Positions 12,809 through 58,440 are shown, numbered from the stretch's first letter. The stretch is 64,000 nt of DNA from Candidatus Limnocylindrales bacterium (GCA_035308445.1 DATGGQ010000011.1:23902-87901), one strand, 5' to 3'. Program-made: numbers and translations. Notes: a model not told the origin generated them from the letters alone.

Positions 12809-12843
12809 CCATCCGTCAATGCCGCATCGAGGGTCCCCTCGGT

Positions 12844-37867: not shown

Positions 37868-38506
37868 CTAGCGTAGTCCCCGATCCCGCTGATCGGAAGC
37901 CCCGAGCCGATCCACGATCGATTGCAGGTCCTCGGGCCGGTCGACGTCGACGAGGCTGCCGCCGTCCGGATCCACGGCTCGCCACTCGGCCTCGGGCACC
38001 CCGCTGGTCCGGAGGCGGTCGAGGAGCGATCGCAGCGACCGGTCTCCCCGGCCGAGCGCGGTCATGGAGGCGGCGCGAGCGGGCGCGACGCGAAGGGCCG
38101 CCGGCAGCGGCCGGCGATCGCCCGCGACGTCGAGGACGGCGGCTTCCGGCGGGCCAGGCGGATCGCCGCGTCCGAGCTCCGCGAGCAGTCGCCGGAGCAG
38201 CGCCGGCCGGACCAGCGGCATGTCGCCACCGATCACGATCGCGAGGTTCTCGTCGGTCGCGGCGAGCCCCGCGGCGAGGCCGACGAGCGGGCCGCCGAAT
38301 GGCTCTGGGTCGATCACGAACCGCGCGCCTGGACGGAGGGCAACGTTCGCCGACCCGGGAGCCAGCACGACGATGACCTCCTCGGCGACCGCCGTCGCCG
38401 CCGCGACGGCGTGGTCGAGCAGGGGCCGGCCGTCGAGGATCGCCTCGAGCTTCGATCCACCGAACCGCGACGACTGCCCGCCGGCGAGGACGATCGCGGC
38501 GGTCAT
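37868..38506 (-). CDS. mobA: molybdenum cofactor guanylyltransferase
   Basis: LAGGQSSRFG motif, MobA length. 4-nt overlap with selB stop. Confidence 0.8.
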   Translation of the reverse strand: MTAAIVLAGGQSSRFGGSKLEAILDGRPLLDHAVAAATAVAEEVIVVLAPGSANVALRPGARFVIDPEPFGGPLVGLAAGLAATDENLAIVIGGDMPLVRPALLRRLLAELGRGDPPGPPEAAVLDVAGDRRPLPAALRVAPARAASMTALGRGDRSLRSLLDRLRTSGVPEAEWRAVDPDGGSLVDVDRPEDLQSIVDRLGASDQRDRGLR

Positions 38507-40440: not shown

Positions 40441-40443
40441 CGG

Positions 40444-41799
40444 TCAGGCGGCCAGGGCCCGGGCGATTGCCTCCGCCAGGTCGTCGTCCCGGTCGGGCTC
40501 GACGGTCCGGAGATCGAGGATGACGCGCCGGTCCTCGATCCGGCCGACGACGGCCGGTCGTCCGGTCCGCAGCGCCTTCGCGAGCGCGTCAGCGCGCCGG
40601 GTCCCGAGCGCGAGCCCGCGCGACGGCAGGCCGACCCCCGGCAGCGCCCCGCCCCCGAACGTCGCCTCGGTCTCGATCGCCAGCGTCCCGGTCCGGGTCG
40701 CGAGGGCAGCCGCGCGCGTCGCCAGGGCCGAGACCGGCGCCGAGACGGCACGCCAGAGCGGGACCTCCTCGACCGCTCGGCCGGACCGATAGAGGCCCAG
40801 CGTCGCCGCCACCGCCGAGAGCGTGACCTTGTCCGGTCGCATCGCCCGGGCCAGCGGGTCGCGCCGGATCCGGTCGACGAGGTCGTGTCGACCGACGACG
40901 AGCCCGGCCTGCGGCCCGCCCACGAGCTTGTCGCCGCTGAACGTCACGATGTCGGCCCCGGCGGCGAGCCGCTCCCGCGGCTCGGGCTCGTGCGGCAGGC
41001 CGAATCGAGCGGTGTCGAGGAGCGCCCCGGACCCGAGATCGTCGACAACGATCGCCCCGTGGGCGTGGGCGAGGCCAGCGACCGCCTCGAGATCGGGGTC
41101 CTCGACGAAGCCTTCCTGGCGGAAGTTGGAGCGATGGACGCGGAGGACCACGCCCGCCCGCCGCTCCTCCAGCGCCGCCTCGAAGTCGGCGGCCCGCGTG
41201 CGATTGGTGGTCCCGACCTCGACGAGGCGAGCCCCGGCGCGGCGGATGATCTCGGGGATGCGCACGCCGCCGCCGATCTCGACGAGCTCGCCCCGCGACA
41301 CGACGACCGGGCCGCCACGGCCCGCGAGGCCGACCGCGAGGGCAACGGCGGCGGCGTTGTTGTTCGTGACGAGGGCGTCCTGCGCGCCGGTCAGGTCGAC
41401 GAGCAGGTCCTCGGCGGCCCGATAGCGACGCCCGCGCCGGCCGGTGTCCGCGTCCAGCTCGAGCAGCAGCGCCGACGCGGCGGCCGCTCCCGCCGCCTCG
41501 ATCGCGACGGCGGGCCACGCCGCGCGCCCGAGGTTCGTGTGGATGAGCACGCCGGTCGCGTTGATCACGAGCGGCGGCTCGGCGGCCCGATCCCGCGCAT
41601 CGAGCCACGCGGCGGCTTCCTCGGCCAGGAGCTCGGGCGATCGGGCGCCAGCGCCGGTCTCCGCCGCGAGCCGATCCCGCTCGGCCGCCACCGCCGATCG
41701 AGCCGCGTCGAGCAGCGCCGCCGGGTCGCGACCGTCGGCGCTCCTCCGGAGGACGGCGAGGACGCGCTCGACGCTCGGCGGTCGGCTCGCGGTCGTCAC
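40444..41799 (-). CDS. selA: L-seryl-tRNA(Sec) selenium transferase
   Basis: PSVERVL N-terminus, PLP-lysine region ([13 protein letters not shown]), ~450 aa. GTG start with AGGAGG 10 nt upstream. Confidence 0.9.
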
Positions 41800-41814
41800 G
41801 TCGGAGACACCTCC

Positions 41815-41911
41815 TGGCGGGAGCGCGTGGGAGTCGAACCCACCGCGCGACGCCAAGCGCCGCGCCACTCGTTTTGAAGACGAGGGAGCCCACCGGGACC
41901 CCTCCGCTCCC
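41815..41911 (-). tRNA. selC: tRNA-Sec (anticodon UCA)
   Basis: Reverse strand reads GGGAGCGGAGGGGTCCCGGTGGGCTCCCTCGTCTTCAAAACGAG...GGTGGGTTCGACTCCCACGCGCTCCCGCCA. T-arm GTGGG/TTCGACT/CCCAC, anticodon loop CU-UCA-AA, long variable arm, encoded CCA, ~97 nt. Exact 5' end and acceptor pairing need tRNAscan-SE. Confidence 0.8.
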
Positions 41912-41929
41912 GGTTCGAATGGTGCACCT

Positions 41930-43024
41930 ATGATCCGGCTCGTGGTGCAGACGCGAGAGCGGATTCGCCTCACCGAGCTGACCGAATGCGGCGGTTGCGC
42001 CGCGAAGCTCGGGGCCGACGTGCTCGAGGAGGCGCTCGCCGGGCTCGCCGTGGCCGGCGGCGGGCAACGTCCGGCCGAGCTGATCGCCGGTCTCGATCCG
42101 CCCGATGACGCCGCAGTCCACCTCGTCGCGCCGGACGTCGCGGTGATCGGGACCCTCGACTTCTTCCCGCCGATCGTCGACGACCCGTTCACCTACGGCG
42201 AGATCGCCGCGGCCAACGCCCTCTCCGATGTCTTCGCGATGGGCGGTCGGGTGCTGTTCGCGCTATCCGTCGCGGCCATGCCCGAGGATCTGCCGGTGGC
42301 GTCGTTCCGGGCCATCCTCGACGGAGCCGCCTCGGTCGTCCGCGAGGCGGGCGGGATCCTGGCCGGCGGCCACACGATCCGCGACCCCGAGCCGAAGTAC
42401 GGGCTCGCGGTCGTCGGTGTGGCTCACCCGGATCGGCTGCTCCGCAAGGGCGGCGCCCAGCCGGGCGATCGCCTCGTGCTGACCAAGGCGCTCGGAACCG
42501 GGCTCCTGGTCAGCGGCCATCGCCAGGGAAAGGCCTCCGACGCGGACCTCGATGGCGCCATCGTTGCGATGCGGGCCCTGAATCGCGAGGCCGCCGACGT
42601 CCTCGTCTCGCACGACGTCCGGGGCGCCACCGACGTGACCGGCTTCGGCCTCCTCGGCCACGGGCTCGAGATGGCCCGGGCGTCCGGCACGGCATTCGTC
42701 TTCGAGGCCACGGCGTTGCCCGCCCTGCCCGGCGCGCTCGACGCTGCTCGAGCGGGCGTCGAGACCGGCGGGGCCGCCCACAACCGCCGGTTCGTCGCCG
42801 GGTCCCTGACGGTCGGGCTCGACCTTCCGCCGGAGCTCGTCACGCTGGCCCACGATCCCCAGACCTCGGGCGGGCTGCTCGCGTCGATCCCGCCGAGCCA
42901 GGTCGAATTCGTCGATGCGGCGCTCTCCGCCGCCGGCGTCGACCACTGGTGGATCGGCCACGTGGAAGCCGCCGCCGAGCCCTCGCTCCGGCTCGCATCG
43001 CCCCGCCGAAGGCCCGCGGCGTAG
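41930..43024 (+). CDS. selD: selenide, water dikinase (selenophosphate synthetase), Cys-type
   Basis: LTELTECGGCAAKLG N-terminal motif (Cys, not Sec), AIR-synthase-like fold, 365 aa. C-terminal part of track ORF 41444..43024. Confidence 0.9.
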   Translation: MIRLVVQTRERIRLTELTECGGCAAKLGADVLEEALAGLAVAGGGQRPAELIAGLDPPDDAAVHLVAPDVAVIGTLDFFPPIVDDPFTYGEIAAANALSDVFAMGGRVLFALSVAAMPEDLPVASFRAILDGAASVVREAGGILAGGHTIRDPEPKYGLAVVGVAHPDRLLRKGGAQPGDRLVLTKALGTGLLVSGHRQGKASDADLDGAIVAMRALNREAADVLVSHDVRGATDVTGFGLLGHGLEMARASGTAFVFEATALPALPGALDAARAGVETGGAAHNRRFVAGSLTVGLDLPPELVTLAHDPQTSGGLLASIPPSQVEFVDAALSAAGVDHWWIGHVEAAAEPSLRLASPRRRPAA

Positions 43025-43085: not shown

Positions 43086-45026
43086 TTGCCGAAGTCGTAC
43101 GTTTGTCTGACCCAGCCCCTCGTGCGAGACACGAAGGGCGGCGAGCTCCGTCCCGCGACGTGGGACGAGGCGCTCGACCGGACCGTCGCGGGACTCCGGG
43201 CCGCGCTCGCGAAGCGTCGCGAGGGCGAGCCGGTCCCGATCGGGATTTTCAGCTGCTCGAAGGCGACGAACGAGGTCAACTTCGCGGCGCAGAAGCTTTC
43301 CCGGCAGGTCCTGGGCAGCAACAACATCGACAGCTGCAACCGCACCTGACACGCCCCTTCTGTCGCCGGTCTGGCGACCGTGTTCGGGGCCGGTGGCGGC
43401 ACCAGCTCATATCGCGAGGCTGAAGAGACCGATCTGATCGTGCTCTGGGGCTCGAACGCCCGGGAGACCCATCCGATCTTCTTCCACCACCTCCTGCGCG
43501 GCGTCCGCAACGGCGCCCGGCTGTTCGCGGTCGACCCGCGCCGGACGTCCTCGGCCGAGTGGGCCGATTCGTGGCTCGGGCTCGATGTCGGCAGCGACAT
43601 CTCGCTGGCCAACGGGATCGCCCGGGAGATCATCCACGCCGGCCTCGCGAACCGCGAGTTCATCGGGCGGGCCACCGACCACTACGAGGACTACGCAGCG
43701 ACGGTCGAGGCCTACCCGCTCGACCGCGTCGAGCAGGATACCGGCGTGCCGGCAGCCGCCATCCGCGAGCTCGCGCACGCCTACGCCTCGGCCGACCGGG
43801 CGATGATCTGCTGGACGCTGGGCATCACCGAGCACCACAACGCGGTCGACAACGTCCTCGCGCTCATCGACCTCGCGCTGCTGACAGGCCATGTGGGGAA
43901 GTACGGATCGGGCCTGAACCCGCTCCGCGGCCAGAACAACGTCCAGGGCGGCGGCGACATGGGCGCCCTGCCCGACCGCCTGCCGGGCTTCCAGCACGTC
44001 GAGAACGACGCGCTCCGGCAGCGCTGCGAGATTGTCTGGGGCTGCGACCTGCCGGCGAAGCGCGGCTGGCACCTGTCCGGCATGTTCGAGGCGATGGATC
44101 GCGGCGACCTGACCGCGCTCTACGTCATCGGCGAGAACCCGCTCCAGTCCGAGGCCGACCGGCACATCACCGAGCGGCGCCTCCGGGGCCTCGACTTCAT
44201 GGTGGTCCAGGACATCGTCATGACGGCCACCGCCGAGATCGCCGACGTCGTCCTGCCGGCCGCCGCGGGCTGGGCCGAGTCGGAGGGCACCGTTACGAAC
44301 TCCGAGCGACGCGTCCAGCGGGTGCGCAAGGCCCTCGAGCCGCCGGGCGACGCCCGCGACGACCTCTGGATCATCTACGAGCTCGCCCGGCGGATGGGCA
44401 AGGACTGGGGCGAGGCCTCGGCCGAGCACACCTGGAACGAGGTCCGGGTCATCTCGCCAGTCCACCGCGGGATGACGTACAGGCGCCTCGAGGAGCTCGG
44501 CGGCATCCAGTGGCCGTGCTACGACGAGGACCACCCCGGTGAGCTGTTCCTCCATTCCCGGCTGCAGGAGAACCCCGTGCCCGGGCTGCGGGCGCCGTTC
44601 GTGCCGGTCGAGCACGATCCGCCGGTCGACACGCTCACCGACGAGTTCCCGATGCGGCTGACGACGGGTCGCCGGCTCGACTCCTACAACACCGGCGTCC
44701 AGACCGGCTCGTTCCGCTCGCCGATGCGCCGCGGCGAGACGCTCGACCTCTCGCCCGAGGACATCGAGCGGCTGGGCCTGACCGAAGGCGAGCGGGTCCG
44801 GATCAGCTCACGTCGCGGCCAGGTCGAGGCGCCGGTGCGCGCCGACTCGGGGCTGCGGCCCGGCCTCGCGTTCATGACGCTGCACTTCCAAGACGACGTC
44901 GCCACCAACCTCCTGACGATCGACGCCACGGACCCGAAGTCCGGCACGGCCGAGTTCAAGGCAACGGCGATCCGCGTCGAGAGGCTCGAGACCGCCGAGC
45001 AGCCCGAGGCGCCCGTCCCGGCCTAG
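43086..45026 (+). CDS. fdhA: formate dehydrogenase alpha subunit, molybdopterin (MopB) portion, selenocysteine-containing (UGA at 43347-43349)
   Basis: ORFs 43086..43349 and 43380..45026 are in the same frame. The TGA lies in NIDSCNRT-U-HAPSVAGL, matching the Sec position of E. coli FdhF (CARVUHGPSVA). Protein starts at LTQPLVR (just after the Mo-site 4Fe-4S region) and lacks the N-terminal Fe-S domains. TTG start with GGAGGA upstream. Confidence 0.85.
43363..43379 (+). promoter_or_regulatory. SECIS-like hairpin downstream of the fdhA UGA
   Basis: GTCGCC-GGTCT-GGCGAC: perfect 6-bp stem, apical loop containing GGUC, starting 13 nt after the UGA. Confidence 0.5.
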
Positions 45027-45046
45027 GGGCGAGGCGCCTCGGGCTG

Positions 45047-45469
45047 TCAGCCCAGCGCGCCGACCTGGGCGAGGAACGCCGGCGTCTCGAAGTAGACCCG
45101 GCCCCGCACGACCTTCCCGTCCTCGAGGTCGTAGGCGACCGCGAGCGGGACCCTGACCTCCTTGCCCGTCGCGGGCACACCGGCGAACTCGCCCGTGTGG
45201 CGGCCCACGAAGTCCCACTCCCCGACGGCCCGCCCCTCGCCGACGAGGAGCCGCTCGTTGATCGCCTCGGCGTGGAAGGCCTGCTGGTGGAAGTAGGTGA
45301 GCATCGCCGCGATCGCGGCCGGGCCGCGGAACTCCTGGCCCGTCGCCATGACCGTGAAGCACACGTCCGGGGCCATGATCTCGAGGTCGCTGTGGCCGGA
45401 CTCGAGGTAGCGGCTGATCGTCGCTCGCGTCTCGTCGACGCTCATCGTCCGCATCGTCGTCGCCGTCAT
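45047..45469 (-). CDS. SnoaL-like / NTF2-fold protein
   Basis: ~140 aa, MSVDETRATISRYLE pattern typical of SnoaL/ketosteroid-isomerase-like proteins. AGGGAGG RBS 7 nt upstream of chosen ATG. Confidence 0.6.
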   Translation of the reverse strand: MTATTMRTMSVDETRATISRYLESGHSDLEIMAPDVCFTVMATGQEFRGPAAIAAMLTYFHQQAFHAEAINERLLVGEGRAVGEWDFVGRHTGEFAGVPATGKEVRVPLAVAYDLEDGKVVRGRVYFETPAFLAQVGALG

Positions 45470-45573
45470 CGGGGTTCCTCCCTTCACGTCGTGGGGGCCG
45501 GTGGCGGCCCGCTGGGTGCAATGTCGCCACCGCGCGTTCCCGCGCCGTTCCCGCTGCGGTACGGTGTCGGCCG

Positions 45574-48500
45574 TTGGGAAGAGAGATGGCCGCGGGGAAG
45601 CTTCGGGCGCGCCTGCTCGGTGGCTTCGAGCTCGGCGTCGGCGACGGGGTGGTCGCGGCGTCGGCGTTCGAGCGCCCGTCGGGCCTCCGACTGCTCAAGC
45701 TCCTCCTCGTCACGCCCGGCCATCGTCTCCGGCGCGAGGAGGCGGCCGAGCTGCTCTGGCCCGACGCCGACCCGGAGCGGAGCGGCGCGAACCTGCGGAA
45801 GGCGATCCACTTCGCCCGCCGCGGCCTCGCGTCGGCACACCCGGGAGCGGAGGCGATCGTCGATGCCGACGGCCGGGAGGTGTGGCTCGATCGTGATCGG
45901 CTCGAGGTGATCGACGCCGACGAGCTTGCCGGCGCGATCGGCAGGGTCGAGGCTCGCCAGCGCGCCGGCGACGACCGCCTCGGCTCCGCCCTCGCGATCC
46001 TCGCCCGGTCCGGCGGCGAGACGCTGCTGCCCGCCGACCCGTACGAGCCCTGGCTCGAGCCCGCCCGGGAGGGCCTCCGCCAGCGCGCCCTCGAGGCGCT
46101 CGTCGTCGGAGCGGAGGCCGCCCGCGCTTCCGCGGATCGGGCCTCGGCGCTCGCCCTGGCCGGTCGAGCCCTGGCCCTGGAGCCGGCCGAGGAGCGGGCC
46201 CATCGGCTGCTCATCGAGCTCCACCTCGACGCCGGCGAGCTCCACGCCGCCCGGCGGCAGCTGCAGTCCTGCCGGCAGGCCGTCGCCGAGGCGTATGGCG
46301 TCGAGCCGGACCCGGCGCTGGCGACGCTCATCGCCGAGGCCACGGCAAGCCGGCCGAAGGCCGAGCGCGGCCCGATCGAGGCGCCGATCGTCGGACGCCG
46401 CGCGGAGCTCGAGCGAGCCCGGGCCGCGATCGACGGGGTGGCCGCCGGCGCACGCGCCGGCGCGATCCTGATCCGGGGCCAGGCCGGGATCGGCAAGTCG
46501 CGGGTGCTCCGCGAGGTCGTCGCCGAGGTGCGAGCCGCGGGCTGGTCCGTGCTCGAGCTGCGGGGCCTGGAGGACGCCGTGAGCGCACCGTTCGCTCCGG
46601 TGGCCCAGGCGATCGTCGCCGGGCTGGATGGCGATCTCGGGCTCGTTCCCGAGCCGGCCCGGAGCGCGATTCGCTTCGCCGATCCCACAGCCTCGGCGGC
46701 CGCGCCGGCCGTCGCGTTCGGCTCGGACGCTCCGGTCCAGCGGGGCCTGCTCGATGCGCTCGCCGAGGTCGGCCCCCGTGAGGTGCCCATCGCGCTGGCC
46801 GTCGACGATGCGCAATGGCTCGACCGGGCCAGCCTCGAGCTGCTCGAGGCCGCGATCGGCGGTTCCGCCGCGCGATCCGGCCTCGTCGTCGTGACGGTTC
46901 GGGACGAGCCGTCGCTCGTCAGCGGTCCCGTGAGCGTCGTCCTGGCAGCCGTCGAGCGAACGGGCGGCACCGATGTCAGGCTCGGTCCACTGGCCGAGGC
47001 CGAGATCCGCGACGTCATCGAACGGGATGTCGCGGGCGGACCGATCGCCGACGACCTCGCCGCCGCGATCGGCCAGCTCTCGGCGGGCGCGCCGCTGTTC
47101 GCCGCGGACCTGTTCCGTTCGGCGCGGGAGACCGCCCTCGTCGAAGAGCGGGACGGTCGCTGGTCGTTCCGGCGGGGCGTCACGTCCCTCCAGGTCCCCG
47201 AGAGCATCGTTCGCCTCGTCGACCGCCGCATCTCCCGGATGGGCCCGGTCCAACGGCTCATCCTGGCCACGGCCGCCGAGCTCGGCGACGTCGTGGCCTT
47301 CGATGATCTCGTCGAGACGGGCTCTGGCCCGGACGAGGTCCTCGACGCCGTCGACGCCGCGCTAGCCGCAGGGCTCGTCGTCGAGCGCGAGGGTCGTTAC
47401 GCCTTCGCCCACCCGCTGTACCGGGCGGCGCTGCGCCGCGGCCTCCCGCCGCGTGACCGGGCGTCGGTTCACCGGCGGATCGCGATCATGCTGTCGGCCG
47501 GGATCGACCCGCACGATCCCGACGCCGTTGCGCGCGCAGCGGCACGTGGGGTCGACGTGGCGGCCGTCGCCGGCCATGCGGCCAGCGCCGTCGAGCTGGG
47601 CACCCGCGCGGCCGCGCCGCTGGCGGTCGGCTTCGGAATCGGCGCGGGGATTCGGCAGGCCTACCTGTTCGATTTCCCGGCCGCCGTCACGACCCTCCAG
47701 CGCGCGCTCCGCCTGTGGGCTCGCCAACCGGAGGCCGACCGAGCGGCCATCTCGATCTCCCCGGCCTACGTCGAACTGGGCCAGGCGCTTCGACGGACGG
47801 GCGACGACACCGGCGCCGCGGCGGCGTTCCAGGCGGCGATGGACGCGGCCCGGGACGACGACGAGCTCGCGACGGCCGCGTCGGCCGCGGCCTGGCTGCC
47901 CTACGAGCACGGGCGGTTCCGGTCCGCTCTCGCGATCCTCGACGCGGTCGGATCCCGGCTGGCCAACCCCTTGGCCCGTGCCCAGGTCGACTCGGCGCGG
48001 GGCTGGATCATCGGCCGCGACGGCCACTGGACGGAGGCCGCGGCGATCCTGCAATCAGCCGTCCGTACCCTCGACGGCCGTGGGCCCAGCGTCGACCTGA
48101 TGCGCGCCCTCGATCGGCTCGCGATCGCCTATCGCGACAGCGGCGCGTCGCATCCCGCCGCGTCCATCCCGATCCTCGAGCGGGCGATCCACATGGCCGT
48201 CGAGCTCGGCCGGACGGGCGAGCGCGCCGCCTACGAGATGCACCTCGGCGGTGCGTTCCGCGACATCGGCCGGACGGACGATGCCGTCGCCGCGCTGGAT
48301 CGAGCGCGTGGCCTCGCCCGCCTCACCGGCGAGCTGTACATCGAAAGCGTCGTCGAGTGGATGTCCGCCGAGGCTGAGGAGACCCGCGGCGATCCCCGCG
48401 CCGCGATCGCCCACCGGCGGCGCGAGCTGGAGATCTTCACGGGGATTGGCGGCAACCCGCGGCACGAGGCGCTCGCCCACGCCCACATCGCCCACCTCGC

Positions 48501-48651
48501 TCGACGATTGGGCGACGATCAGCTGGCGAGGACGGAGGCCGAGCTGGCCCGTGTCGGGGCGCGACATTCCGGGATCGACGGGCTCGAGGCCCGGATCGAA
48601 TGGGCCCTCTCGACCGAGGATTGGTTCGCGTCGCCCGAAGACGTCGCCTGA
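45574..48651 (+). CDS. AfsR/SARP-family transcriptional regulator (OmpR-type winged helix + BTAD + NB-ARC ATPase + TPR)
   Basis: LRARLLGGFEL...LLKLLLV...AELLWPD (SARP DNA-binding), BTAD block, Walker A GQAGIGKSR, Walker B LAVDDAQWLD, long TPR-like C-terminus. 1025 aa. Confidence 0.8.
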   Translation: MGREMAAGKLRARLLGGFELGVGDGVVAASAFERPSGLRLLKLLLVTPGHRLRREEAAELLWPDADPERSGANLRKAIHFARRGLASAHPGAEAIVDADGREVWLDRDRLEVIDADELAGAIGRVEARQRAGDDRLGSALAILARSGGETLLPADPYEPWLEPAREGLRQRALEALVVGAEAARASADRASALALAGRALALEPAEERAHRLLIELHLDAGELHAARRQLQSCRQAVAEAYGVEPDPALATLIAEATASRPKAERGPIEAPIVGRRAELERARAAIDGVAAGARAGAILIRGQAGIGKSRVLREVVAEVRAAGWSVLELRGLEDAVSAPFAPVAQAIVAGLDGDLGLVPEPARSAIRFADPTASAAAPAVAFGSDAPVQRGLLDALAEVGPREVPIALAVDDAQWLDRASLELLEAAIGGSAARSGLVVVTVRDEPSLVSGPVSVVLAAVERTGGTDVRLGPLAEAEIRDVIERDVAGGPIADDLAAAIGQLSAGAPLFAADLFRSARETALVEERDGRWSFRRGVTSLQVPESIVRLVDRRISRMGPVQRLILATAAELGDVVAFDDLVETGSGPDEVLDAVDAALAAGLVVEREGRYAFAHPLYRAALRRGLPPRDRASVHRRIAIMLSAGIDPHDPDAVARAAARGVDVAAVAGHAASAVELGTRAAAPLAVGFGIGAGIRQAYLFDFPAAVTTLQRALRLWARQPEADRAAISISPAYVELGQALRRTGDDTGAAAAFQAAMDAARDDDELATAASAAAWLPYEHGRFRSALAILDAVGSRLANPLARAQVDSARGWIIGRDGHWTEAAAILQSAVRTLDGRGPSVDLMRALDRLAIAYRDSGASHPAASIPILERAIHMAVELGRTGERAAYEMHLGGAFRDIGRTDDAVAALDRARGLARLTGELYIESVVEWMSAEAEETRGDPRAAIAHRRRELEIFTGIGGNPRHEALAHAHIAHLARRLGDDQLARTEAELARVGARHSGIDGLEARIEWALSTEDWFASPEDVA

Positions 48652-48739
48652 CCCCGGGCTGACGGTCACGCCGGTCGGCACCGTCCGGCCCTGTTCCGAC
48701 GGGATGGCCGGCACGACCATCCCTGGCGGAGGTAGTGCC

Positions 48740-49540
48740 ATGTTCAAGCGACTCTTCGTGACCGGCGCCGCGATCGGCGCCGCATCGGCCTGGGCCGGCT
48801 TCGTCGCGGCTCGAACGATCTGGCGGCAATGGGGCATCGAGCCCGCCGAGCAGACCATCGCCCTGCCGGGAGACGACCTCGTCCCGGCGGCCGGCGCCGT
48901 CGAGACACGCGGGATCGACATCGCCGCACCGCCATCGGCCGTGTGGCCGTGGCTCGTGCAGATGGGCTATGGGCGGGCCGGCTGGTACAGCTATGACGGG
49001 CTCGACATCGACAAGCCGAGCCTCGATCGGATCGTGCCCGAGCTCCAGTCCATCGAGGTCGGGAACGTCATGCCCACGCATCCCGGTGGCGGGTTCGTCG
49101 TGAAGGTCGTCGAGCCCGAGCACGCGCTGGTCGTCTACAACGACCGGGCGACGGTCGAGGCCCAGGCCGCCACGTCCCGCGGCGCCTCGGGAGGCGGGAT
49201 CGAGGCCGCGTCGCCGAACGTCCGGGTCACGGGCGCCTACCTCGACAGGGCCGTCCCGGGCGAGTTCGAGGCGAGCTGGGCGTTCGTCATCGAGCCGACC
49301 GCGACCGGAACCCGTCTGGTCGAGCGCTTCCGGGCCCGGATGGAGCCGCCGAAGCGTCCGTCCGGCCAGCCGTTCAGCATCCCGGGATTCGCGTTCTCGC
49401 TCCTGGGCTTCGGCGTGTTCGTGATGGTCCGGCGCCAGATGCTCGGCATCCGCGATCGCGCCGAAGGCCGGCCGATCCGGCCGTCCATCCTGTTCCGGAC
49501 CGCTCGGCCGATGGGTCGGGCGGCCATTCGCCCGGCCTGA
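48740..49540 (+). CDS. SRPBCC-family (polyketide cyclase/dehydrase-like) protein with N-terminal TM/signal
   Basis: GGAGG RBS. N-terminal hydrophobic segment followed by a ~150-aa START/Bet v1-like region (WPWLVQMGYGRAGWYSYD). C-terminal part of track ORF 48251..49540. Confidence 0.6.
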   Translation: MFKRLFVTGAAIGAASAWAGFVAARTIWRQWGIEPAEQTIALPGDDLVPAAGAVETRGIDIAAPPSAVWPWLVQMGYGRAGWYSYDGLDIDKPSLDRIVPELQSIEVGNVMPTHPGGGFVVKVVEPEHALVVYNDRATVEAQAATSRGASGGGIEAASPNVRVTGAYLDRAVPGEFEASWAFVIEPTATGTRLVERFRARMEPPKRPSGQPFSIPGFAFSLLGFGVFVMVRRQMLGIRDRAEGRPIRPSILFRTARPMGRAAIRPA

Positions 49541-49603
49541 CCCCGTCCGCTTCCGCTCGGCGGCCGGCTGGCGTGGCCGGCCGCCGATCTACACTCGGCG
49601 CCA

Positions 49604-51520
49604 ATGGACCTGCACGTCGTGGGGCCGCTGGCCTCCCCGGCCGAGCGTGCCGCCGTCGATGCGATCGTCGGGCCGGCGACATCGGGCTGGCAGGGTGGCG
49701 CCCGGGACCCCATGACCGAGGGCCACGCCGTCCACGGCGGGCACGAGGCCCGCGCTCGACGCGACCTCCTCCTCCCCGCCCTCCACGCCCTCCAGGACCG
49801 GATCGGGTTCATCAGCCAGCCGGGGCTCAACTACGTTTGCCGGCGCCTGACCGTGCCGCCCGCCGAGGCCTACGGCGTGGCGACGTTCTACGCCCTGCTC
49901 TCGACGACGCCGCGGCCACCGACCGTCGCCCACGTCTGCGACGACATCGCGTGCCGGCTCGCGGGGGCCGAGGACGTGATCTCGGACGTCGAGCGGGCCC
50001 TCGGCCCAACGGGCTCCCCAGGTCGCGATGGTCGAACGACCTGGCTCCGGAGCCCGTGCCTCGGCCTGTGCGAGCGGGCGCCCGCGGCGATGGTCACGCG
50101 CTCGGGCGAGCGGCCGCGACGCGAGGCGTTCGGCCCCGTGGACGTGGCGGCCATCCTGGGCCACCTTGAGGTCGGCGATGTCGAGGCCGGCAGCGCGGTC
50201 GGCGGCGGCTGGCGGACGGCGGCTCGCGAATCCGTCCCGCAGGTCGGGCAGTCGGAGCTCCGGCTGCTGGCCAGGGTCGGCAGCGTCGACCCGACCTCGC
50301 TCGACGCCTATGTCGCGGCCGGCGGGTATCGGGCGCTTCGCAACGCCCTGGCGATGGGCCGCGACGCGACGATCCACGAGGTGACCGACTCGAAGCTCGT
50401 CGGGCGCGGCGGGGCCGCGTTTCCCACCGGGCGCAAGTGGTCGGCGGTCGCGGCACAGCCGGCCGAGCCGCACTACGCGGTCTGCAACGCCGACGAGTCG
50501 GAGCCGGGCACGTTCAAGGACCGGATCCTCATGGAGCTCGACCCGTTCGCGGTGGTCGAGTCGATGACGATCGAGGGCTACGCCACGGGGGCCGCGAAGG
50601 GCTACCTCTACATCCGCGGGGAGTACCCGCTCGCCGAGGGCCGGATGCTCGCCGCGATCGCGGCGGCCCGGGCGGCCGGCTACCTCGGGCCGGCGCTTGG
50701 CGCCCGCCTCGGCGCAGCCGGGGGCGAACCCTTCGACTTCGACATCGAGGTTCGGCGCGGCGCCGGCGCCTACATCTGCGGCGAGGAGACGGCGCTGTTC
50801 GAATCGATCGAGGGCCGGCGCGGCGAACCGCGCAACAAGCCACCGTTCCCGGTCGAGTTCGGGCTGTTCGGCAAGCCGACCGTCATCAACAACGTCGAGA
50901 CGCTGGCCAACGTCCTGCTCATCCTCGGTGATGGCGACGGGGTCGGCGGCGGGGCACGCTTCGCCGGGTCCGGCACCGACGGCTCGACCGGGCCGAAGCT
51001 CTTCTGCCTCTCCGGCAACGTGGCCCGGCCGGGGCTCTACGAGGTCCAGTTCGGCACGACCCTCCGTCAGCTGCTCGAGCTGGGTGGCGGCGTCCCCGGC
51101 CGGCAGTCGATCCGGGCGATCCTGCTCGGCGGCGCCGCCGGCGTGTTCGTCGGACCCGAGACGCTCGACACGCCCCTGACCTTCGAGGGCACCCGGGCGA
51201 TCGGGGCGACGCTCGGCTCGGGCGTCGTGATGGTCTTCGACGAGACCGCGGACATGGTCGGCACACTGCGGCGGATCGCCGCGTTCTTCCGCGACGAGTC
51301 ATGCGGCCAGTGCGTTCCCTGTCGGGTGGGCACGGTTCGCCAGGAGGAGCTCCTGGCGCGTCTCGCGGACGGCACCGCGGTCCGATCTCGCGAGGCGGAG
51401 CTCCAGCTCCTCGCCGACATCGGCCGGGCGATGCGCGACGCGAGCATCTGCGGCCTCGGCCAGACCGCGTCGTCGGCCATCGAGTCCGCCCTCCGGCAGC
51501 CGGAGCTGGTCGCGACATGA
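49604..51520 (+). CDS. fdsB: NAD-dependent formate dehydrogenase diaphorase subunit, NuoE-like/NuoF-like fusion (FdsG-FdsB)
   Basis: N-terminal thioredoxin-like 2Fe-2S domain (VCDDIACRL...LGLCERAP). C-terminal NuoF-like domain with FMN/NADH motifs (GRGGAAFPTGRKW, CNADESEPGTFKDR) and 4Fe-4S (ESCGQCVPCRVG). Confidence 0.85.
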   Translation: MDLHVVGPLASPAERAAVDAIVGPATSGWQGGARDPMTEGHAVHGGHEARARRDLLLPALHALQDRIGFISQPGLNYVCRRLTVPPAEAYGVATFYALLSTTPRPPTVAHVCDDIACRLAGAEDVISDVERALGPTGSPGRDGRTTWLRSPCLGLCERAPAAMVTRSGERPRREAFGPVDVAAILGHLEVGDVEAGSAVGGGWRTAARESVPQVGQSELRLLARVGSVDPTSLDAYVAAGGYRALRNALAMGRDATIHEVTDSKLVGRGGAAFPTGRKWSAVAAQPAEPHYAVCNADESEPGTFKDRILMELDPFAVVESMTIEGYATGAAKGYLYIRGEYPLAEGRMLAAIAAARAAGYLGPALGARLGAAGGEPFDFDIEVRRGAGAYICGEETALFESIEGRRGEPRNKPPFPVEFGLFGKPTVINNVETLANVLLILGDGDGVGGGARFAGSGTDGSTGPKLFCLSGNVARPGLYEVQFGTTLRQLLELGGGVPGRQSIRAILLGGAAGVFVGPETLDTPLTFEGTRAIGATLGSGVVMVFDETADMVGTLRRIAAFFRDESCGQCVPCRVGTVRQEELLARLADGTAVRSREAELQLLADIGRAMRDASICGLGQTASSAIESALRQPELVAT

Positions 51521-52602
51521 CGACCGAGTCCCGGGCCCGCGAGCCGCACGAGTACAGGCCGGCCCCGTACGACCCGCCGCCGGACCTGGCCCTCGTCATC
51601 ACGACGCCGATGGCTAGGGCCACCCACGTCCCGGCCGCGCCGCCGGTCGCGGCGCCAGCGCCGGTCGCCGTCACGATCGATGGCACCGCGGTCAGCGTCC
51701 CCGAGGGCTCGACGATCCTCGACGCCTGCCGGGCCGTGGGCAAGGACATCCCGACGCTCTGCTACCTCGAGAACCTGACCCCCGTGAACGTCTGCCGCGT
51801 CTGCGTCGTCGAGGTCAAGGGCGCCCGCGTCCTCGCTCCGGCGTGCTCCCGCCGGGTCGAGGCCGGCATGGAGGTCGAGACGGAATCCGAGCGGGTCCGG
51901 CACTCGCGCAAGACGGTGATCGAGTTCCTCGGCTCGTCGGTCGACACCTCGCTGGCCGGTCCGCAGCGGCCCGATGGCACGCTCGCCGCGTACGTCGAGC
52001 GCTACGGTGCCGACCCCTCGCGATTCGGGCCGGCCGCGTCACCGTCGCCGGCCGGTGCCCGCGACGCCCGCCAGCCCGGCCACCACCACGAGCCATCGGG
52101 CGCGGAGGCGGCGCAGGTGGCGACCGTTGGGCAGCCGGTGAAGGTCGACAACGACCTCTACGTCCGGGACTACTCGAAGTGCATCCTCTGCTACAAGTGC
52201 GTCGAGGCCTGCGGCGACGACGCCCAGAACACCTTCGCGATCGCGGTCGCGGGGCGCGGCTTCGATGCCCGGATCTCGACCGAGTGGAACGTGGGCCTGC
52301 CCGACTCGGCCTGCGTCTACTGCGGCAACTGCATCGGCGTCTGCCCGACCGGCGCGCTCATGTTCAAGTCGGAGCACGACATGCGGGCCGCCGGGACCTG
52401 GGACGAGGACGCTCAGTCCGTGACCTCGACGATCTGCCCGTACTGCGGTGTCGGCTGCGCCGTCGACGTCCACGTCCAGGACAACCGGATCGTGAAGGTG
52501 ACCTCGCCGATCGATTCGTCCGTCACCGACGGCCACCTCTGCATCAAGGGCCGCTTCGGCTTCGAGTTCACCAACGCCGGACCCCGCGCCGGCGAGGGCT
52601 GA
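51517..52602 (+). CDS. fdsA: formate dehydrogenase alpha subunit, N-terminal Fe-S portion (2Fe-2S ferredoxin + 2x[4Fe-4S] + Mo-site Fe4S4), stand-alone
   Basis: VTIDGTAVSVPEGSTILDACR...LCY...CRVCVVEV (2Fe-2S), CILCYKCVEAC / CVYCGNCIGVCP (ferredoxin 4Fe-4S), ends in TICPYCGVGC...HLCIKGRFGFEF (Molybdop_Fe4S4) and a stop. ATGA overlap with fdsGB. Confidence 0.85.
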   Translation: MTTESRAREPHEYRPAPYDPPPDLALVITTPMARATHVPAAPPVAAPAPVAVTIDGTAVSVPEGSTILDACRAVGKDIPTLCYLENLTPVNVCRVCVVEVKGARVLAPACSRRVEAGMEVETESERVRHSRKTVIEFLGSSVDTSLAGPQRPDGTLAAYVERYGADPSRFGPAASPSPAGARDARQPGHHHEPSGAEAAQVATVGQPVKVDNDLYVRDYSKCILCYKCVEACGDDAQNTFAIAVAGRGFDARISTEWNVGLPDSACVYCGNCIGVCPTGALMFKSEHDMRAAGTWDEDAQSVTSTICPYCGVGCAVDVHVQDNRIVKVTSPIDSSVTDGHLCIKGRFGFEFTNAGPRAGEG

Positions 52603-52611
52603 GGCCCCGTC

Positions 52612-53553
52612 CTAGCGGGCGGCCAGGAGGTCGCGCAGGTCGATGCGGCCGTCGTGGCTGTAAACGTTGAAGCCGTCGCCCCGCAGGAACCCGACGAGCG
52701 TCACCCCGAGCCGCTCGGCGAGGCGGATCGCCAGGTCGGACGGGGCCGAGACCGCACAGATGATCGGGATCCCGGCCATCGCCGCCTTCTGGACGATCTC
52801 GAAGCTGACCCGACCGGACACGAGCAAGAGGCGGTCCCAGAGCGGCAGCTCGTGCACCCGGACCCGTGAGCCGATCAGCTTGTCCAGGGCGTTGTGCCGG
52901 CCGACATCCTCTCGGATCGCGACGAGACGCCCGTCCGTCTCGAACAGGCCGGCGGCGTGGAGTCCGCCGGTCCGCTCGAACGCAGCCTGCGCGGCCCGGA
53001 GCCGGTCCGGCAGGGAGAGGACGACCGCGCGACTGACGACCGGGAGGCCGACGGGCAGCGGCTCGCACCGGACGGCGACATCGTCGATCGAGGCCTTGCC
53101 GCAGATCCCGCAGGAGGCGGTCGCGACGAAGTTGCGGGCCGCGAGGCGCGACGGGTCGAACGGCCGGGCGAGGCGGACGAGGACGCTGTCGTCGGGCTGC
53201 GACTGCGTCGCCGGGTCGCCGTAGCGGACGCCCGCGATCTCGTTGCCGGCGAGCAGGCCCTCCGTGGTCAGGAACCCGATCGCGAGCTCGTCCTCGTAGC
53301 CCGGCGTCCGCATCGTGACCGCGACCTGGACGGGTTCCTGGCGCGGGCCGGCCGCGCGAATCTCGAGCGGCTCCTCGCCGACGACGAGGTCGTCGCGCAC
53401 CTCGAGCACCTCGCCCCGGACCGCCACGACCTTCGTGCCGGTGACGTGGCGGATCGGCAGGGAGGGGTCGAGGGGCTCGGAGCGCTTGACCGGCGCCGGG
53501 CTCGGCTCGACGGGGGCCCGCCGAGCCGGTCCAGGCCCGGTCGGTGTCCTCAT
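52612..53553 (-). CDS. fdhD: formate dehydrogenase accessory sulfurtransferase
   Basis: FdhD motifs (ASCGICG, GRHNALDK), ~310 aa. Confidence 0.85.
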   Translation of the reverse strand: MRTPTGPGPARRAPVEPSPAPVKRSEPLDPSLPIRHVTGTKVVAVRGEVLEVRDDLVVGEEPLEIRAAGPRQEPVQVAVTMRTPGYEDELAIGFLTTEGLLAGNEIAGVRYGDPATQSQPDDSVLVRLARPFDPSRLAARNFVATASCGICGKASIDDVAVRCEPLPVGLPVVSRAVVLSLPDRLRAAQAAFERTGGLHAAGLFETDGRLVAIREDVGRHNALDKLIGSRVRVHELPLWDRLLLVSGRVSFEIVQKAAMAGIPIICAVSAPSDLAIRLAERLGVTLVGFLRGDGFNVYSHDGRIDLRDLLAAR

Positions 53554-53819
53554 GCGGCGGGCTGGCCCGCTCCGTGGGAATGGAGATGAAGGTGGGGCTT
53601 CCGGTCCGGGCCGGGCTCCACGGTCCCACCGACGGCGAGCAGCAGACGCTCGGAGGCCTCCGCGATCTCCTGGATCGCGGCCTCGAACGCGGCCGCATTG
53701 CGAGCCGACGGGACGCGGTAGCCGCTCACCTTCCGGACGAACTGGCGAGCGGCGGCTTCGACCTCGCCGGTGGTCGCCGGGACCTCGGAATCACGCAGGG
53801 TGCGGATGCTTCGACACAT
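53550..53819 (-). CDS. DUF2277 domain-containing protein
   Basis: MCRSIRTLRD...FVRKVSGYR N-terminus characteristic of the DUF2277 small-protein family. ATGA-coupled to fdhD. Confidence 0.6.
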   Translation of the reverse strand: MCRSIRTLRDSEVPATTGEVEAAARQFVRKVSGYRVPSARNAAAFEAAIQEIAEASERLLLAVGGTVEPGPDRKPHLHLHSHGAGQPAA

Positions 53820-53988
53820 GGGCGGAGCGTACCAGCGGGCCCGTCGAAGCCTCCCCGGCAGCCCGGTGCCGGGTGGCTGGGCGCACCGCGTTGTAATGCG
53901 GACGTTATTCGCTTCGGACCCGGAAGGACGATGATGTCGGTCCGGGCCCGCGTGCCCGTGTCGACCGCATGGGAGGCGCCTCGAACCG

Positions 53989-56280
53989 GTGGACCCGACG
54001 GTTCTCCTCTTCACGCTGACCTTCTTCTTCCTGTTCGGCGTGTCGGCCTGGCGCTTCCTCCGCCGGCCCGGCCCGCTGGAGCTGTCGGTCCTGGCCGTCT
54101 TCGGGGCGTTCGCCGCCCTCCTCGTCCTGAACGTGATCAACGCCTCGGTCCCGTCCCTGACGCCGATCTTCCGCCCCGCGCTCGTCGCGATCCTGTTCCT
54201 CCAGCCGTACCTCGTGCTCCGCCTCGTCGACCAGATCCAGCGGGTCCCGCTCGGGATCTCCCGGGCGGTGCTCCTCGGGGCCGTCGCCGCAACGGCGGCC
54301 GTGGTCGCCGCACCGGGCCACACGGTCGCGACGATCCCGGCCGTCGCCTACTTCTTCCTCGCCCAGACCGTGGCGGCCGCCCGGTTCGCCGTGGCGAGCC
54401 GGCGTCGGTTCGGCATGGCCCGGATCCGGCTCGCGCTCGCGTCCGTCGCGACCGGGCTCTTCGGCGGCGCCCTCCTCATCGCGGGCATCGGCGCGGCCGC
54501 GGCCAACGGCGGAGCGACATCGCCGGCGGTCGTCCAGGGCTCGCGTCTCGCGGGGATCCTCGCCGGGTTCGGCTACCTCGCAGCCTTCGTCGCACCAGCC
54601 TGGCTGCGCCGGTTCGCCTACCGGGCGCTGGCCTTCGACCTCGTCCGGTCCCTGGTCGCCCCGCCGGTCGGCACCGACGCCGGCCGGCTCTGGGAGCAGC
54701 TGGCGTCGACGGCCCGGGAGATCCTCGGGGCGCGTCGCGTCGAGATCCTGGCGGAGCCGGGGGGCCAGGCCCTCGCGAGCGTCGGAGGACAGCCGGAATC
54801 CGCCGGCGCGGAAGGCGTCGACGGATCGGCGACCGCCGCGTCGGGTCGCGTGCCGATGTCGATCATCCAGGTCCGCGTTCGCGCAGCCGGCGGGCCGAGC
54901 GAGCAGCTCGGGGCGGAGATCGAGGGCCGCCCGCTGTTCGTGGAGGACGACGTCGCCCTGCTCCAGCTGCTCGGCTCGCTGACGGCCCGGGCGGTCGACC
55001 GCGAGGGTGCCCTGATCGGTCTCGGGGAGGCGAAGCGGGCGATCGAGGAATCGGCCGTCCTGCGCGCCAGCGAGGCTCGCTTCCGGGCCCTCCTCGAGGC
55101 CGATCCGAACGCCGTCCTCGCCCTCGACGAGAACGGCAAGGTCACGTGGGCCACCCGCCAGGCGGGCGAGGTGTTCGGCTCGCGGGCCGAGGACCTCATC
55201 GGGGTCCGCCTCGCCGACCTCGTCGTCCTGCCCTCGGACCACGCCGCTCCCGGACCGGCGCTCTCGGCCGACGGGGGCGTCTTCCGAGCCGAGACCACCG
55301 GCCGCCGCTCGGATGGCACGCGCTTCCCGGCCGAGATCGCCCGATCCGAGTTCGAGCTCGACGGCCGACCGTTCCAGCTCGCGGTCATCTCGGATGTCAG
55401 CTGGCGTCACGAGGCCGACCAGATCCGGGAGCGCTTCCTGGGGGTGCTGTCGCACGAGCTGCGGACCCCCGTCACGTCGATCTACGGCGGCACGCAGCTC
55501 CTGCTCGGCCGGGGGGCCCGCCTCGATCCGGCGACGCGCGCCGACCTGCTCGTCGGCATCGCCGCCGAATCCGAGCGGCTCCAGCGGATGATCGAGAACC
55601 TCGTGGCGATGGCGCGCATCGAGCGCGGCGCCGAGTACTCCGGCCCACGTCCGGTCCTCGTCGAGCGGATCATCCGGGGGCTCGTCGAGCGCGAACGGGC
55701 GCTCTGGCCCGAGGTCACGATCCGGATGTCGAACCGCGGGCCGATCTCGATGGTCGCGGCCGACGAGGAATACCTCGCCCAGATCATGCGGAACCTGCTG
55801 TCGAACGCGGCGAAGTACGGCGGGCCGGGCTCGACGGTCGACGTCGAGCTGGTCGACGGGCCGGAGGAGGTCCACATCCTCGTCCGCGACGACGGTCCGG
55901 GCATCAGCCCCGAGGACGCCGACAAGCTGTTCAACCTGTACTACCGTGCCGCGCCGGCGGCCGCGTCCGCCCCCGGCGCCGGGATCGGCCTGTTCGTCTG
56001 CCATGAGCTCGTCGCGTCGATGGGCGGGCGCATCTGGGCCACGGCGCTCCCGGAGCGCGGCGCCGAGTTCGGGTTCAGCCTGCCGGTCTACCCGGACGAG
56101 CCGGAGCCGGTGGACGTGCCCGCGCCTGGTATCGTCGCGAAGGACTCGACCAACGGCTCGACACCGGCTCCGGAGCCGACCCATGGCGACGGCTCCACGC
56201 CGACGCCGTCGCCGGCACCATCGCCGTCACCCGAGCCGGTCCCGGCGGCCCGCCGCAGCCGGACGCCGACGGCGGCATAG
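53989..56280 (+). CDS. membrane sensor histidine kinase (multi-TM sensor, PAS, HisKA, HATPase_c), no adjacent response regulator
   Basis: Six or more N-terminal TM helices, PAS region (NAVLALDENGKVTWATRQ), H-box LSHELRTPVTSI, N/G boxes (NLLSNAAKYG, GAGIGLF), Pro/Ser-rich tail. GTG start. Confidence 0.85.
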   Translation: MDPTVLLFTLTFFFLFGVSAWRFLRRPGPLELSVLAVFGAFAALLVLNVINASVPSLTPIFRPALVAILFLQPYLVLRLVDQIQRVPLGISRAVLLGAVAATAAVVAAPGHTVATIPAVAYFFLAQTVAAARFAVASRRRFGMARIRLALASVATGLFGGALLIAGIGAAAANGGATSPAVVQGSRLAGILAGFGYLAAFVAPAWLRRFAYRALAFDLVRSLVAPPVGTDAGRLWEQLASTAREILGARRVEILAEPGGQALASVGGQPESAGAEGVDGSATAASGRVPMSIIQVRVRAAGGPSEQLGAEIEGRPLFVEDDVALLQLLGSLTARAVDREGALIGLGEAKRAIEESAVLRASEARFRALLEADPNAVLALDENGKVTWATRQAGEVFGSRAEDLIGVRLADLVVLPSDHAAPGPALSADGGVFRAETTGRRSDGTRFPAEIARSEFELDGRPFQLAVISDVSWRHEADQIRERFLGVLSHELRTPVTSIYGGTQLLLGRGARLDPATRADLLVGIAAESERLQRMIENLVAMARIERGAEYSGPRPVLVERIIRGLVERERALWPEVTIRMSNRGPISMVAADEEYLAQIMRNLLSNAAKYGGPGSTVDVELVDGPEEVHILVRDDGPGISPEDADKLFNLYYRAAPAAASAPGAGIGLFVCHELVASMGGRIWATALPERGAEFGFSLPVYPDEPEPVDVPAPGIVAKDSTNGSTPAPEPTHGDGSTPTPSPAPSPSPEPVPAARRSRTPTAA

Positions 56281-56349
56281 CGTCGGCCTCGGCCGGAAGC
56301 CTCGGTCCGCACCGGGAGCAGCCGTCCGCGCCGGGATCAACCGTCCGCG

Positions 56350-57726: not shown

Positions 57727-57769
57727 CGCCCGAGTCTAGGCCCGGGGGCCGGCGGACCAGAGTGCCGAT

Positions 57770-58348: not shown

Positions 58349-58440
58349 GTCGCGGCGAACCGTAGCCGGGCAGGGGTTGCGCGCCGTCGGCCTCGAGCGA
58401 CGCGACCGTCACGGGCCTGTGACATCGTCGTGACAACCGC

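Follow-up and report, generated by a model that had tools for sequence, protein, structure and literature searches.

A stretch of 64,000 nucleotides from Candidatus Limnocylindrales bacterium (GCA_035308445.1 DATGGQ010000011.1:23902-87901; the whole stretch is called here the window), a member of an order placed in the class Limnocylindria of the phylum Chloroflexota, carries a putative formate dehydrogenase (FDH) whose catalytic alpha subunit is spread over two genes. One of them specifies an iron-sulfur (Fe-S) module ending just past the [4Fe-4S] cluster proximal to the metal-pterin cofactor (the Fe-S half, or alphaN), the other one a molybdopterin-binding body with a selenocysteine (Sec) active site (the MopB half, or alphaC), and the fused diaphorase gene fdsGB sits between them. 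Judged from the sequences, this split is real and conserved, and the enzyme is quite probably a naturally three-polypeptide FDH linked to nicotinamide adenine dinucleotide (NAD). An initial annotation of the region had already proposed an alpha subunit encoded by two genes at the Fe4S4/MopB boundary, and Pfam, the Rhodobacter capsulatus FdsA chain (6tg9_A) and the TIGR01591 profile agree on that point; it made no mention of the permutation of the genes, of the neighbouring sel cluster or of a missing His-ligated cluster.

The Pfam content of the Fe-S half consists of Fer2_4, a ferredoxin-type 4Fe-4S dicluster and, at residues 301-353, Molybdop_Fe4S4, and the scan found no Molybdopterin domain in it. 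Its 16 cysteines form four cluster motifs, which correspond to one [2Fe-2S] and three [4Fe-4S] clusters. The proximal [4Fe-4S] motif, CPYCGVGC...CIKGRFG, occupies residues 307-344, and the protein terminates 13 residues past CIKGRFG, so that this gene is, as first read, an Fe-S module only, with the [2Fe-2S] and ferredoxin-type [4Fe-4S] sites of the N-terminal part of NuoG and HoxU. The MopB half begins at a TTG four bases past GGAGGA, the start that had been proposed for it, and contains a single in-frame TGA (43347-43349) within CNRT-U-HAPS. Its Pfam domains are Molybdopterin (PF00384, E = 1.5e-65) and Molydop_binding (PF01568, E = 5.7e-26) and nothing else, which bears out the view of this gene as the Sec active site plus the rest of the molybdopterin domain. 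Neither its open reading frame (ORF) nor the in-frame upstream region holds Fe4S4 cysteines or a CxxCxxxC...CxKG motif, an absence on which the proposed division had been made to depend; no single polypeptide of this alpha subunit thus contains both the proximal cluster and the MopB domains. The class I signature of FDHs (U/C-H ... RGQ) is present in the MopB half as CNRT-U-HAPS and NPLRGQNNVQG (for the motif classes of FDH active sites see PMC8808070).

When both proteins are aligned to intact alpha subunits, the Fe-S half matches residues 18-303 of R. capsulatus FdsA (6tg9_A, E = 2e-42) and the MopB half residues 310-932 of the same chain; the latter also aligns with residues 62-689 of Escherichia coli FdhH (450 bits). 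On the TIGR01591 (Fdh-alpha) profile, positions 1-53 are covered by the Fe-S half and 54-672 by the MopB half, with 51.4 and 625.3 bits, respectively. Neither half passes alone the curated cutoff of 666.25, which their summed score of 676.7 exceeds. The two halves are thus contiguous in the alignments, with neither gap nor overlap, and the complementarity that had been claimed for them holds. In E. coli FdhH, the cut would correspond to residue 60/61, the border between domains I and II.

More than 600 stretches matched when one genome per species was scanned; the best 80 loci, each from a species-representative genome, belong to Chloroflexota, Acidobacteriota, Planctomycetota, Actinomycetota, Rokubacteria and others. 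All of the 67 loci that hold the three genes have them on one strand and in the order MopB half, fdsGB, Fe-S half. The ORF of the Fe-S half stops 5-38 residues past C[IV]KGRFG, with a variable tail, in 85 out of 86 loci, and the MopB halves start 3-10 codons before RLTxP[LM][VI]R without any in-frame cluster motif upstream. Moreover, two homolog searches with the Fe-S half gave, among their top 120 matches, only proteins of 306-422 amino acids with PF04879 at the end, and the nearest unsplit relatives (770-1405 amino acids) are 37-48% identical to it in a HMMER search of all representatives, which returned mostly metagenomic fragments. Four metagenomic contigs of 0.45-1.36 Mb share the layout of the window; their Fe-S halves are 76-87% identical to that of the window, and their MopB ORFs are intact, with one TGA each at the same site. 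In a closed 10.2 Mb chromosome of an acidobacteriote (L078), the three genes form a self-contained operon amid unrelated neighbours. By this comparison, the split is conserved in uncultured soil and freshwater bacteria of at least five phyla.

Compared with those of the window, the Fe-S halves have ratios of nonsynonymous to synonymous substitution rates (dN/dS) of 0.13-0.32 and the MopB halves of 0.24-0.39, which indicate purifying selection on both. The pairwise distances of the two halves are also correlated over 52 loci (Mantel r = 0.55, or 0.75 without a frameshifted locus, L075), a value that none of 999 permutations reached. Together with the fixed split point and its occurrence in several phyla, these values argue for a natural two-polypeptide alpha subunit, one of the two options that the initial annotation had offered. 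Outside Chloroflexota, 28 out of 29 loci have no more than 240 nt between the MopB half and fdsGB; over 37 Chloroflexota loci this distance ranges from 18 to 6713 nt, with 4581 nt in the window. Since the gap is small elsewhere and variable in Chloroflexota, the block of SnoaL-like, regulator and 265-amino acid genes in the window is a lineage-specific island between already separate genes, and the 6.5 kb spacing of the halves is incidental.

A second feature of the family is its use of Sec. The ligand position is encoded by TGA in all of the 62 MopB halves recovered, and by a Cys codon in none; in the alignments to FdhH and FdsA, this UGA falls on their Sec/Cys site. A search with the MopB half retrieved, as its top 120 database homologs, only post-UGA fragments of 522-561 amino acids. 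Fifteen nucleotides past the UGA lies a predicted hairpin (GUCGCC-GGUCU-GGCGAC), whose GGUCUG loop is unchanged in 49 of 51 distinct family sequences. At stem position 3, the pair C:G is replaced by G:C through changes at two synonymous sites (GUC/GCG to GUG/GCC) in six out of six cases, that is, in a compensatory manner. The Sec insertion sequence (SECIS) of E. coli fdhF shows a GGUC loop in the same register after its UGA. Rfam gave no match to a SECIS family, and the element was assessed by folding and covariation. The UGA, the SECIS hairpin, tRNA-Sec, SelA, SelB and SelD are all present.

The complete sel set (38503-43024) adjoins the MopB half: selB, selA and the tRNA-Sec gene are encoded by the minus strand and selD by the plus strand, and selD might be cotranscribed with the MopB half. 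Many Limnocylindria loci have selA, selD and the MopB half arranged in this way, among them L011, L012, L016, L021, L022, L026 and L036. Another genome of the Limnocylindrales (L038) carries the split operon and, in addition, a conventional unsplit FdsA beside a FdsB-like gene; this pair, at 9517-14612 on the minus strand, is 34-44% identical to the split genes and offers a comparison inside a single genome. This unsplit FdsA keeps the His-cluster motif, has a TGA at the ligand site, and its junction reads KGRFAYDFPSSPERLTTPLMR. We considered that the split might limit the waste derived from inefficient UGA read-through, an idea weakened by this unsplit paralog: as it also uses UGA, the use of Sec alone does not explain the split.

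The Fe-S half differs from FdsA in a further respect. The His-ligated [4Fe-4S] cluster of FdsA and NuoG (HxxxCxxCx5C) is missing from it, with no match to PF10588. Its place is taken by a Cys-free linker (51940-52130, residues ~142-205) with a GHHH motif (52078-52089) that does not vary among 14 close homologs and reaches a conservation of at least 90% among 50. In the R. capsulatus enzyme, the His-ligated cluster (A4) sits at a dimer interface, outside the route of the electrons (PMC7171172), so its loss would be tolerable.

The enzyme that emerges from these data is quite probably a three-polypeptide, soluble, NAD(H)-linked and Sec-dependent FDH with a molybdenum or tungsten bis-pyranopterin cofactor, of the FdsABG or Methylobacterium Fdh1AB kind, which receives its proximal cluster in trans. 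We infer that the three chains assemble and act as a formate:NAD+ oxidoreductase, and likewise which metals it could use and in which direction it would work in the cell. The UGA would be decoded as Sec by the adjacent selABCD machinery by means of the downstream SECIS hairpin, and FdhD, whose gene accompanies the locus in most of the relatives, would mature the cofactor. AlphaC would bind the metal-pterin and supply Sec88, His89 and the arginine of RGQ without any Fe-S cluster, and alphaN would provide the proximal [4Fe-4S], including the Lys of CxKG, two ferredoxin-type [4Fe-4S] and the [2Fe-2S]. This Lys (Lys44 in FdhH) presumably bridges the cluster and the pterin. The FdsGB fusion, which has both a NuoE-like [2Fe-2S] module and a NuoF-like flavin mononucleotide (FMN)/NAD(H) module, would contribute FMN, a [4Fe-4S], the site for NAD(H) and, off the path, a NuoE-type [2Fe-2S]. 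Electrons would then flow from formate to the Mo/W-Sec centre and the pterin, across the alphaC/alphaN interface to the proximal cluster, and onward through two [4Fe-4S], the [2Fe-2S], the FdsB-type [4Fe-4S] and FMN to NAD+.

We tentatively put forward, as a possibility that goes well beyond that assignment, an unrecognised multi-phylum class of NAD-linked and obligately Sec-dependent FDHs, in which a cluster-free metal-pterin subunit would get its proximal [4Fe-4S] and the bridging CxKG Lys in trans from a HoxU-like subunit. Such a subunit could behave as a catalytic cartridge that matures on its own and that perhaps can detach or be exchanged; in Limnocylindria it would be transcribed separately with selD, and the permuted operon would derive from a tandem duplication of fdsGB-fdsA followed by the loss of the ends. 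No published description of this split was found in full-text literature searches; the Sec-containing FdhA of mycobacteria, known from a preprint, is a 1064-amino acid enzyme of the FdoG type and belongs to a separate family.

Some observations weigh against a three-chain FDH of this sort. An AlphaFold2 model of the Fe-S half alone, based on a 50-sequence alignment, reached a mean pLDDT (the confidence score of the predictor) of 61.9, with values under 50 in the ferredoxin region; the confidence was also low in the region of the GHHH linker. No cultured carrier was found, since a homolog search with an Isosphaeraceae Fe-S half and a cluster look-up gave entries from metagenomes and metagenome-assembled genomes (MAGs) only. 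Four Chloroflexota loci (L028, L030, L048 and L055) contain fdsGB and the Fe-S half with no MopB half within ~8 kb upstream, so linkage is not obligatory and in some genomes the halves may lie further apart or be unlinked. In the window itself, the convergent SnoaL-like gene between the halves implies two transcription units, and therefore their co-regulation is not guaranteed.

Among other explanations for the layout, the initial annotation had left room for an ancestral gene broken by insertion. The unrelated genes, 4.6 kb in all, that separate the MopB half from fdsGB in the window, together with the TTG start of the MopB half, would suit an intact fdsA recently disrupted by the SnoaL/SARP-like island, which would have left a pseudogene or a re-initiated remnant. 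However, the MopB half precedes fdsGB, which in turn precedes the Fe-S half, and a simple insertion cannot yield such an order. The same split point and order recur in at least 67 loci of at least five phyla, mostly without intervening genes, which indicates that mopB-fdsGB-feS is the ancestral order, compact in most phyla. Moreover, both ORFs are intact and under purifying selection, and no intact fused gene was found at this locus in close relatives. The comparative data already refute a disruption, whose probability we regard as marginal. An artefact of assembly, binning or frameshifting has an even slighter claim: the window comes from a MAG, its Fe-S half being 100% identical to an NCBI protein from a Candidatus Limnocylindrales MAG, and related MAG loci show frameshifts (the MopB half of L075 and the Fe-S half of L030), but the same arrangement is found in many independent assemblies, including contigs of 0.45-1.9 Mb and the closed 10.2 Mb chromosome, and the stop keeps its position past KGRFG, as does the start ahead of RLTxP. 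The inspection of related genomes, proposed at the outset as a way to tell a split from an artefact, thus comes down on the side of the split. A post-translational joining of the halves by a split intein or other trans-splicing has nothing in its favour beyond their exact sequence complementarity and can be given practically no credit: the tail past KGRFGFEF is short (5-38 amino acids), variable and unconserved, just 3-10 residues precede RLTxP in the MopB half, and Pfam found no Hint/intein domain, for which this candidate was rejected.

The remaining alternatives accept two genes and assign them other roles. FdsGB and the Fe-S half could form a HoxEFU-like NADH diaphorase for some other partner, with the MopB half as a stand-alone cluster-free molybdoenzyme that follows a different electron route. 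Stand-alone subunits of the HoxU type do exist (5xf9_B is a PDB match of the Fe-S half, which scores 131 bits with the HoxU model NF005745, cutoff 333), as do cluster-free MopB enzymes such as the dimethyl sulfoxide and trimethylamine N-oxide reductases found among the matches of the MopB half, and a few loci lack a nearby MopB half. We consider this scenario unlikely, though, because the Fe-S half retains Molybdop_Fe4S4, a domain whose sole known role is docking onto a MopB domain, and because the MopB half lacks precisely that domain and nothing else while bearing the active-site signature of FDHs (U-H and RGQ); furthermore, the genes are adjacent as a three-gene operon in most phyla and the halves co-vary. 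Rather less likely still is an electron-bifurcating or confurcating FDH of the Bfu/HylABC type. The PDB matches of FdsGB include FdsB, NuoF and HydB, and its best scores are with the HydB of bifurcating hydrogenases (7q4v_B, 364 bits, vs 353 for the FdsB of Cupriavidus necator), but the matches to HydB chains end before the C-terminal domains of HydB. FdsGB itself stops at NADH_4Fe-4S (PF10589, residue 632 of 638), without the extra C-terminal 2x[4Fe-4S] ferredoxin domain that marks Bfu-type (HydABC/HylABC-like) complexes. The Fe-S half has no His-ligated cluster either, and the compact operons hold no additional ferredoxin-interacting subunit. A three-chain NAD-linked FDH remains the reading we favour.

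How such an operon could have arisen is suggested by the position of the cut. In FdsA, the HoxU-like module comprises the first ~250 residues, and the rest is FdhF-like and includes the proximal cluster (PMC7171172). The border between both modules thus falls before the proximal cluster, whereas the split described here comes after it, at ~303-310 of FdsA, that is, ~55 residues inside the FdhF-like module and not at the older HoxU-like/FdhF-like fusion point. A cut inside that module, along with the permuted gene order, suggests that the ancestor was fused and split later on, and not that the genes were separate from the beginning. The order mopB-fdsGB-feS would arise by tandem duplication of fdsGB-fdsA and the subsequent loss of both ends. 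The split is ancient in this family, and in Limnocylindria unrelated genes have gathered between mopB and fdsGB of the ancestral operon.

Among the characterised enzymes, FDH1 of Methylobacterium extorquens (Fdh1AB; PDB 7E5Z, 7VW6) has the closest known architecture, with a cofactor inventory identical to the set predicted here. It is likewise soluble and NAD-linked, properties that in our case are predicted. Its alpha subunit contains a metal-bis(molybdopterin guanine dinucleotide) cofactor, exactly three [4Fe-4S] and one [2Fe-2S], and no His-ligated cluster, and its beta subunit, the equivalent of FdsG plus FdsB, holds FMN, a [4Fe-4S] and a [2Fe-2S] (PMC10869683). However, the alpha subunit of FDH1 is one 989-amino acid chain with a Cys ligand, whereas here there are two chains, cut just past the proximal cluster, and a Sec ligand; unlike in FDH1, the gene order is mopB-beta-feS. 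The FdsABG(D) enzymes of R. capsulatus and C. necator (PDB 6TG9/6TGA, 6VW7) give the best sequence match of the Fe-S half (6tg9_A) and a full-length match for the MopB half (310-932), and share the electron-transfer logic and the FdhD/FdsC maturation factor. Nevertheless, FdsA is a single chain with five clusters, including the His-ligated A4, and a Cys ligand, FdsG and FdsB are separate, and FdsD is present. The single-chain alpha subunit common to FdsABG and Fdh1AB is replaced family-wide by two genes with fdsGB between them.

Partial precedents come from more distant systems. HoxU of the NAD-reducing [NiFe] hydrogenases (5XF9_B) is also a stand-alone Fe-S subunit of the NuoG N-terminal type, which wires a catalytic subunit to a NuoEF-type diaphorase, but it lacks Molybdop_Fe4S4, a domain normally belonging to the molybdoenzyme itself and carried here by the Fe-S half. 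The FwdB/FwdD pair of formylmethanofuran dehydrogenase (PDB 5T5I) sets a precedent for an FDH-like MopB catalytic unit made of two polypeptides, and FwdB appears among the matches of the MopB half; in Methanothermobacter wolfeii, the C-terminal part is a separate subunit, according to the study of the R. capsulatus FDH (PMC7171172). That cut takes off the C-terminal cap (domain IV) and leaves the proximal cluster on the catalytic chain, whereas in our case it is the N-terminal cluster domain that is removed. Finally, E. coli FdhH (FdhF; PDB 1AA6/1FDO) has in common with the MopB half the Sec-His active site and RGQ, but its residues 1-61, which carry the proximal cluster and Lys44, belong to the catalytic chain itself, and its electrons go to hydrogenase-3 and not to a NuoEF-type module.

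These observations have some practical consequences. In current annotation, the halves go by the names "2Fe-2S iron-sulfur cluster-binding protein", "YjgC" or "HndD", or are recorded as post-UGA fragments. This misnaming, added to the failure of either half to reach the TIGR01591 cutoff, makes it likely that the capacity for formate oxidation or CO2 reduction is under-called in abundant uncultured soil and freshwater lineages such as Limnocylindria, Acidobacteriota, Planctomycetota and Actinomycetota. The arrangement would also mean that an FDH tolerates a cut precisely where the proximal cluster ends and the pterin-binding body begins, so that the first electron-transfer step spans a subunit interface, a trait that may be useful for building modular CO2-reduction catalysts. 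A family of NAD-linked FDHs that, within our sample, always uses Sec is moreover unusual, as the characterised NAD-linked enzymes use Cys.

The gene map of the window (Table 1) was built from a screen of GC content at third codon positions combined with Pfam and NCBIfam; the GC content is ~70-77% over 38-58 kb. The tRNA gene at 41815 implies that the true start of selA must fall below that position. The ATG of the Fe-S half overlaps the stop of fdsGB as ATGA, which suggests translational coupling of both genes, and a scan of 44900-49700 for promoters and terminators found nothing.

Table 1. Genes and elements of the split FDH locus and its surroundings, in window coordinates.
Feature	Position	Strand	Basis
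selB, selenocysteine-specific elongation factor	38503-40440	-	TIGR00475, 289 bits vs cutoff 242
selA, L-seryl-tRNA(Sec) selenium transferase	40444-~41799	-	Pfam SelA, E = 3e-113; homology extent 40447-41799
selC, tRNA-Sec, anticodon UCA	41815-41913	-	ARAGORN; Rfam RF01852, 71.4 bits vs gathering score 47
selD, selenophosphate synthetase, directly 5' of MopB half	~42002-43024	+	Pfam AIRS, AIRS_C
MopB half, putative FDH alpha C-half (alphaC), 646 aa, Sec88-His89, RGQ, no Fe-S motif	43086-45026	+	translation; PF00384, PF01568
UGA (Sec) codon and SECIS hairpin	43347-43385	+	stem 43362-43367 : 43373-43378, loop GGUCU, predicted fold
Variable island, outside the enzyme	45047-49540	mixed	three genes (SnoaL-like, regulator, 265-aa)
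SnoaL-like gene	45047-45487	-	Pfam
BTAD/AAA/TPR regulator (SARP-like), 1025 aa	45574-48651	+	Pfam
265-aa membrane-associated protein, function not assigned	48743-49540	+	no significant Pfam match
fdsGB fusion, diaphorase subunit: NuoE-like [2Fe-2S], then NuoF-like FMN/NAD(H) and [4Fe-4S]	49604-51520	+	PF01257, PF01512, SLBB, PF10589
Fe-S half, putative FDH alpha N-half (alphaN), 361 aa	51517-52602	+	Pfam; 6tg9_A and TIGR01591 alignments
fdhD (fdsC-type), sulfurtransferase/chaperone for FDH cofactor maturation	52612-53553	-	FdhD-NarQ PF02634, E = 3e-64
DUF2277 gene	53550-53816	-	
PAS histidine kinase	53989-56280	+	

The interval from the MopB half to fdsGB is, in Limnocylindria, a hot spot of gene gain, usually with a cold-shock (CSD) gene and at times with other genes, as seen when the window (45047-49540) is compared with L001 (1546-8029), L002 (7321-7578), L003 (7780-7992) and L004 (5253-7976); the CSD gene was not found in the island of the window. 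The initial annotation had placed the two halves on the same strand, separated by a SnoaL-like gene, a regulator, a third gene and fdsGB, which is right with the correction that the SnoaL-like gene lies on the minus strand. The SRPBCC label that it gave to the third gene found no confirmation: the 265-amino acid protein had no significant match in Pfam or NCBIfam (Polyketide_cyc2, E = 0.2). It has hydrophobic segments at its N- and C-terminus, and its gene, directly 5' of fdsGB, is 75% identical to the one in the same position of L001 (7247-8026).

Downstream of fdhD, a block at 53550-58408 encodes the DUF2277 protein, the PAS histidine kinase, a beta-eliminating lyase and a DPBB_1 protein; no link of this block to the dehydrogenase was established, and its synteny is kept within Limnocylindria (cf. 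L001-L005). As for the frameshifted loci, the ORF of the Fe-S half of L030 (10940 onward) runs on for 824 codons of low-complexity sequence, and the MopB half of L075 (~6650 onward) becomes junk after ~150 residues; both apparent frameshifts are probably assembly errors or pseudogenes. The position of fdhD also varies between lineages. In Limnocylindria it lies past the end of the Fe-S half and in the opposite orientation; in Actinomycetota it precedes the MopB half and shares its strand, and the distance to the MopB half is ~100-250 nt in L047, L052, L057, L062 and L063, and ~1-2 kb in L054, L059 and L077.

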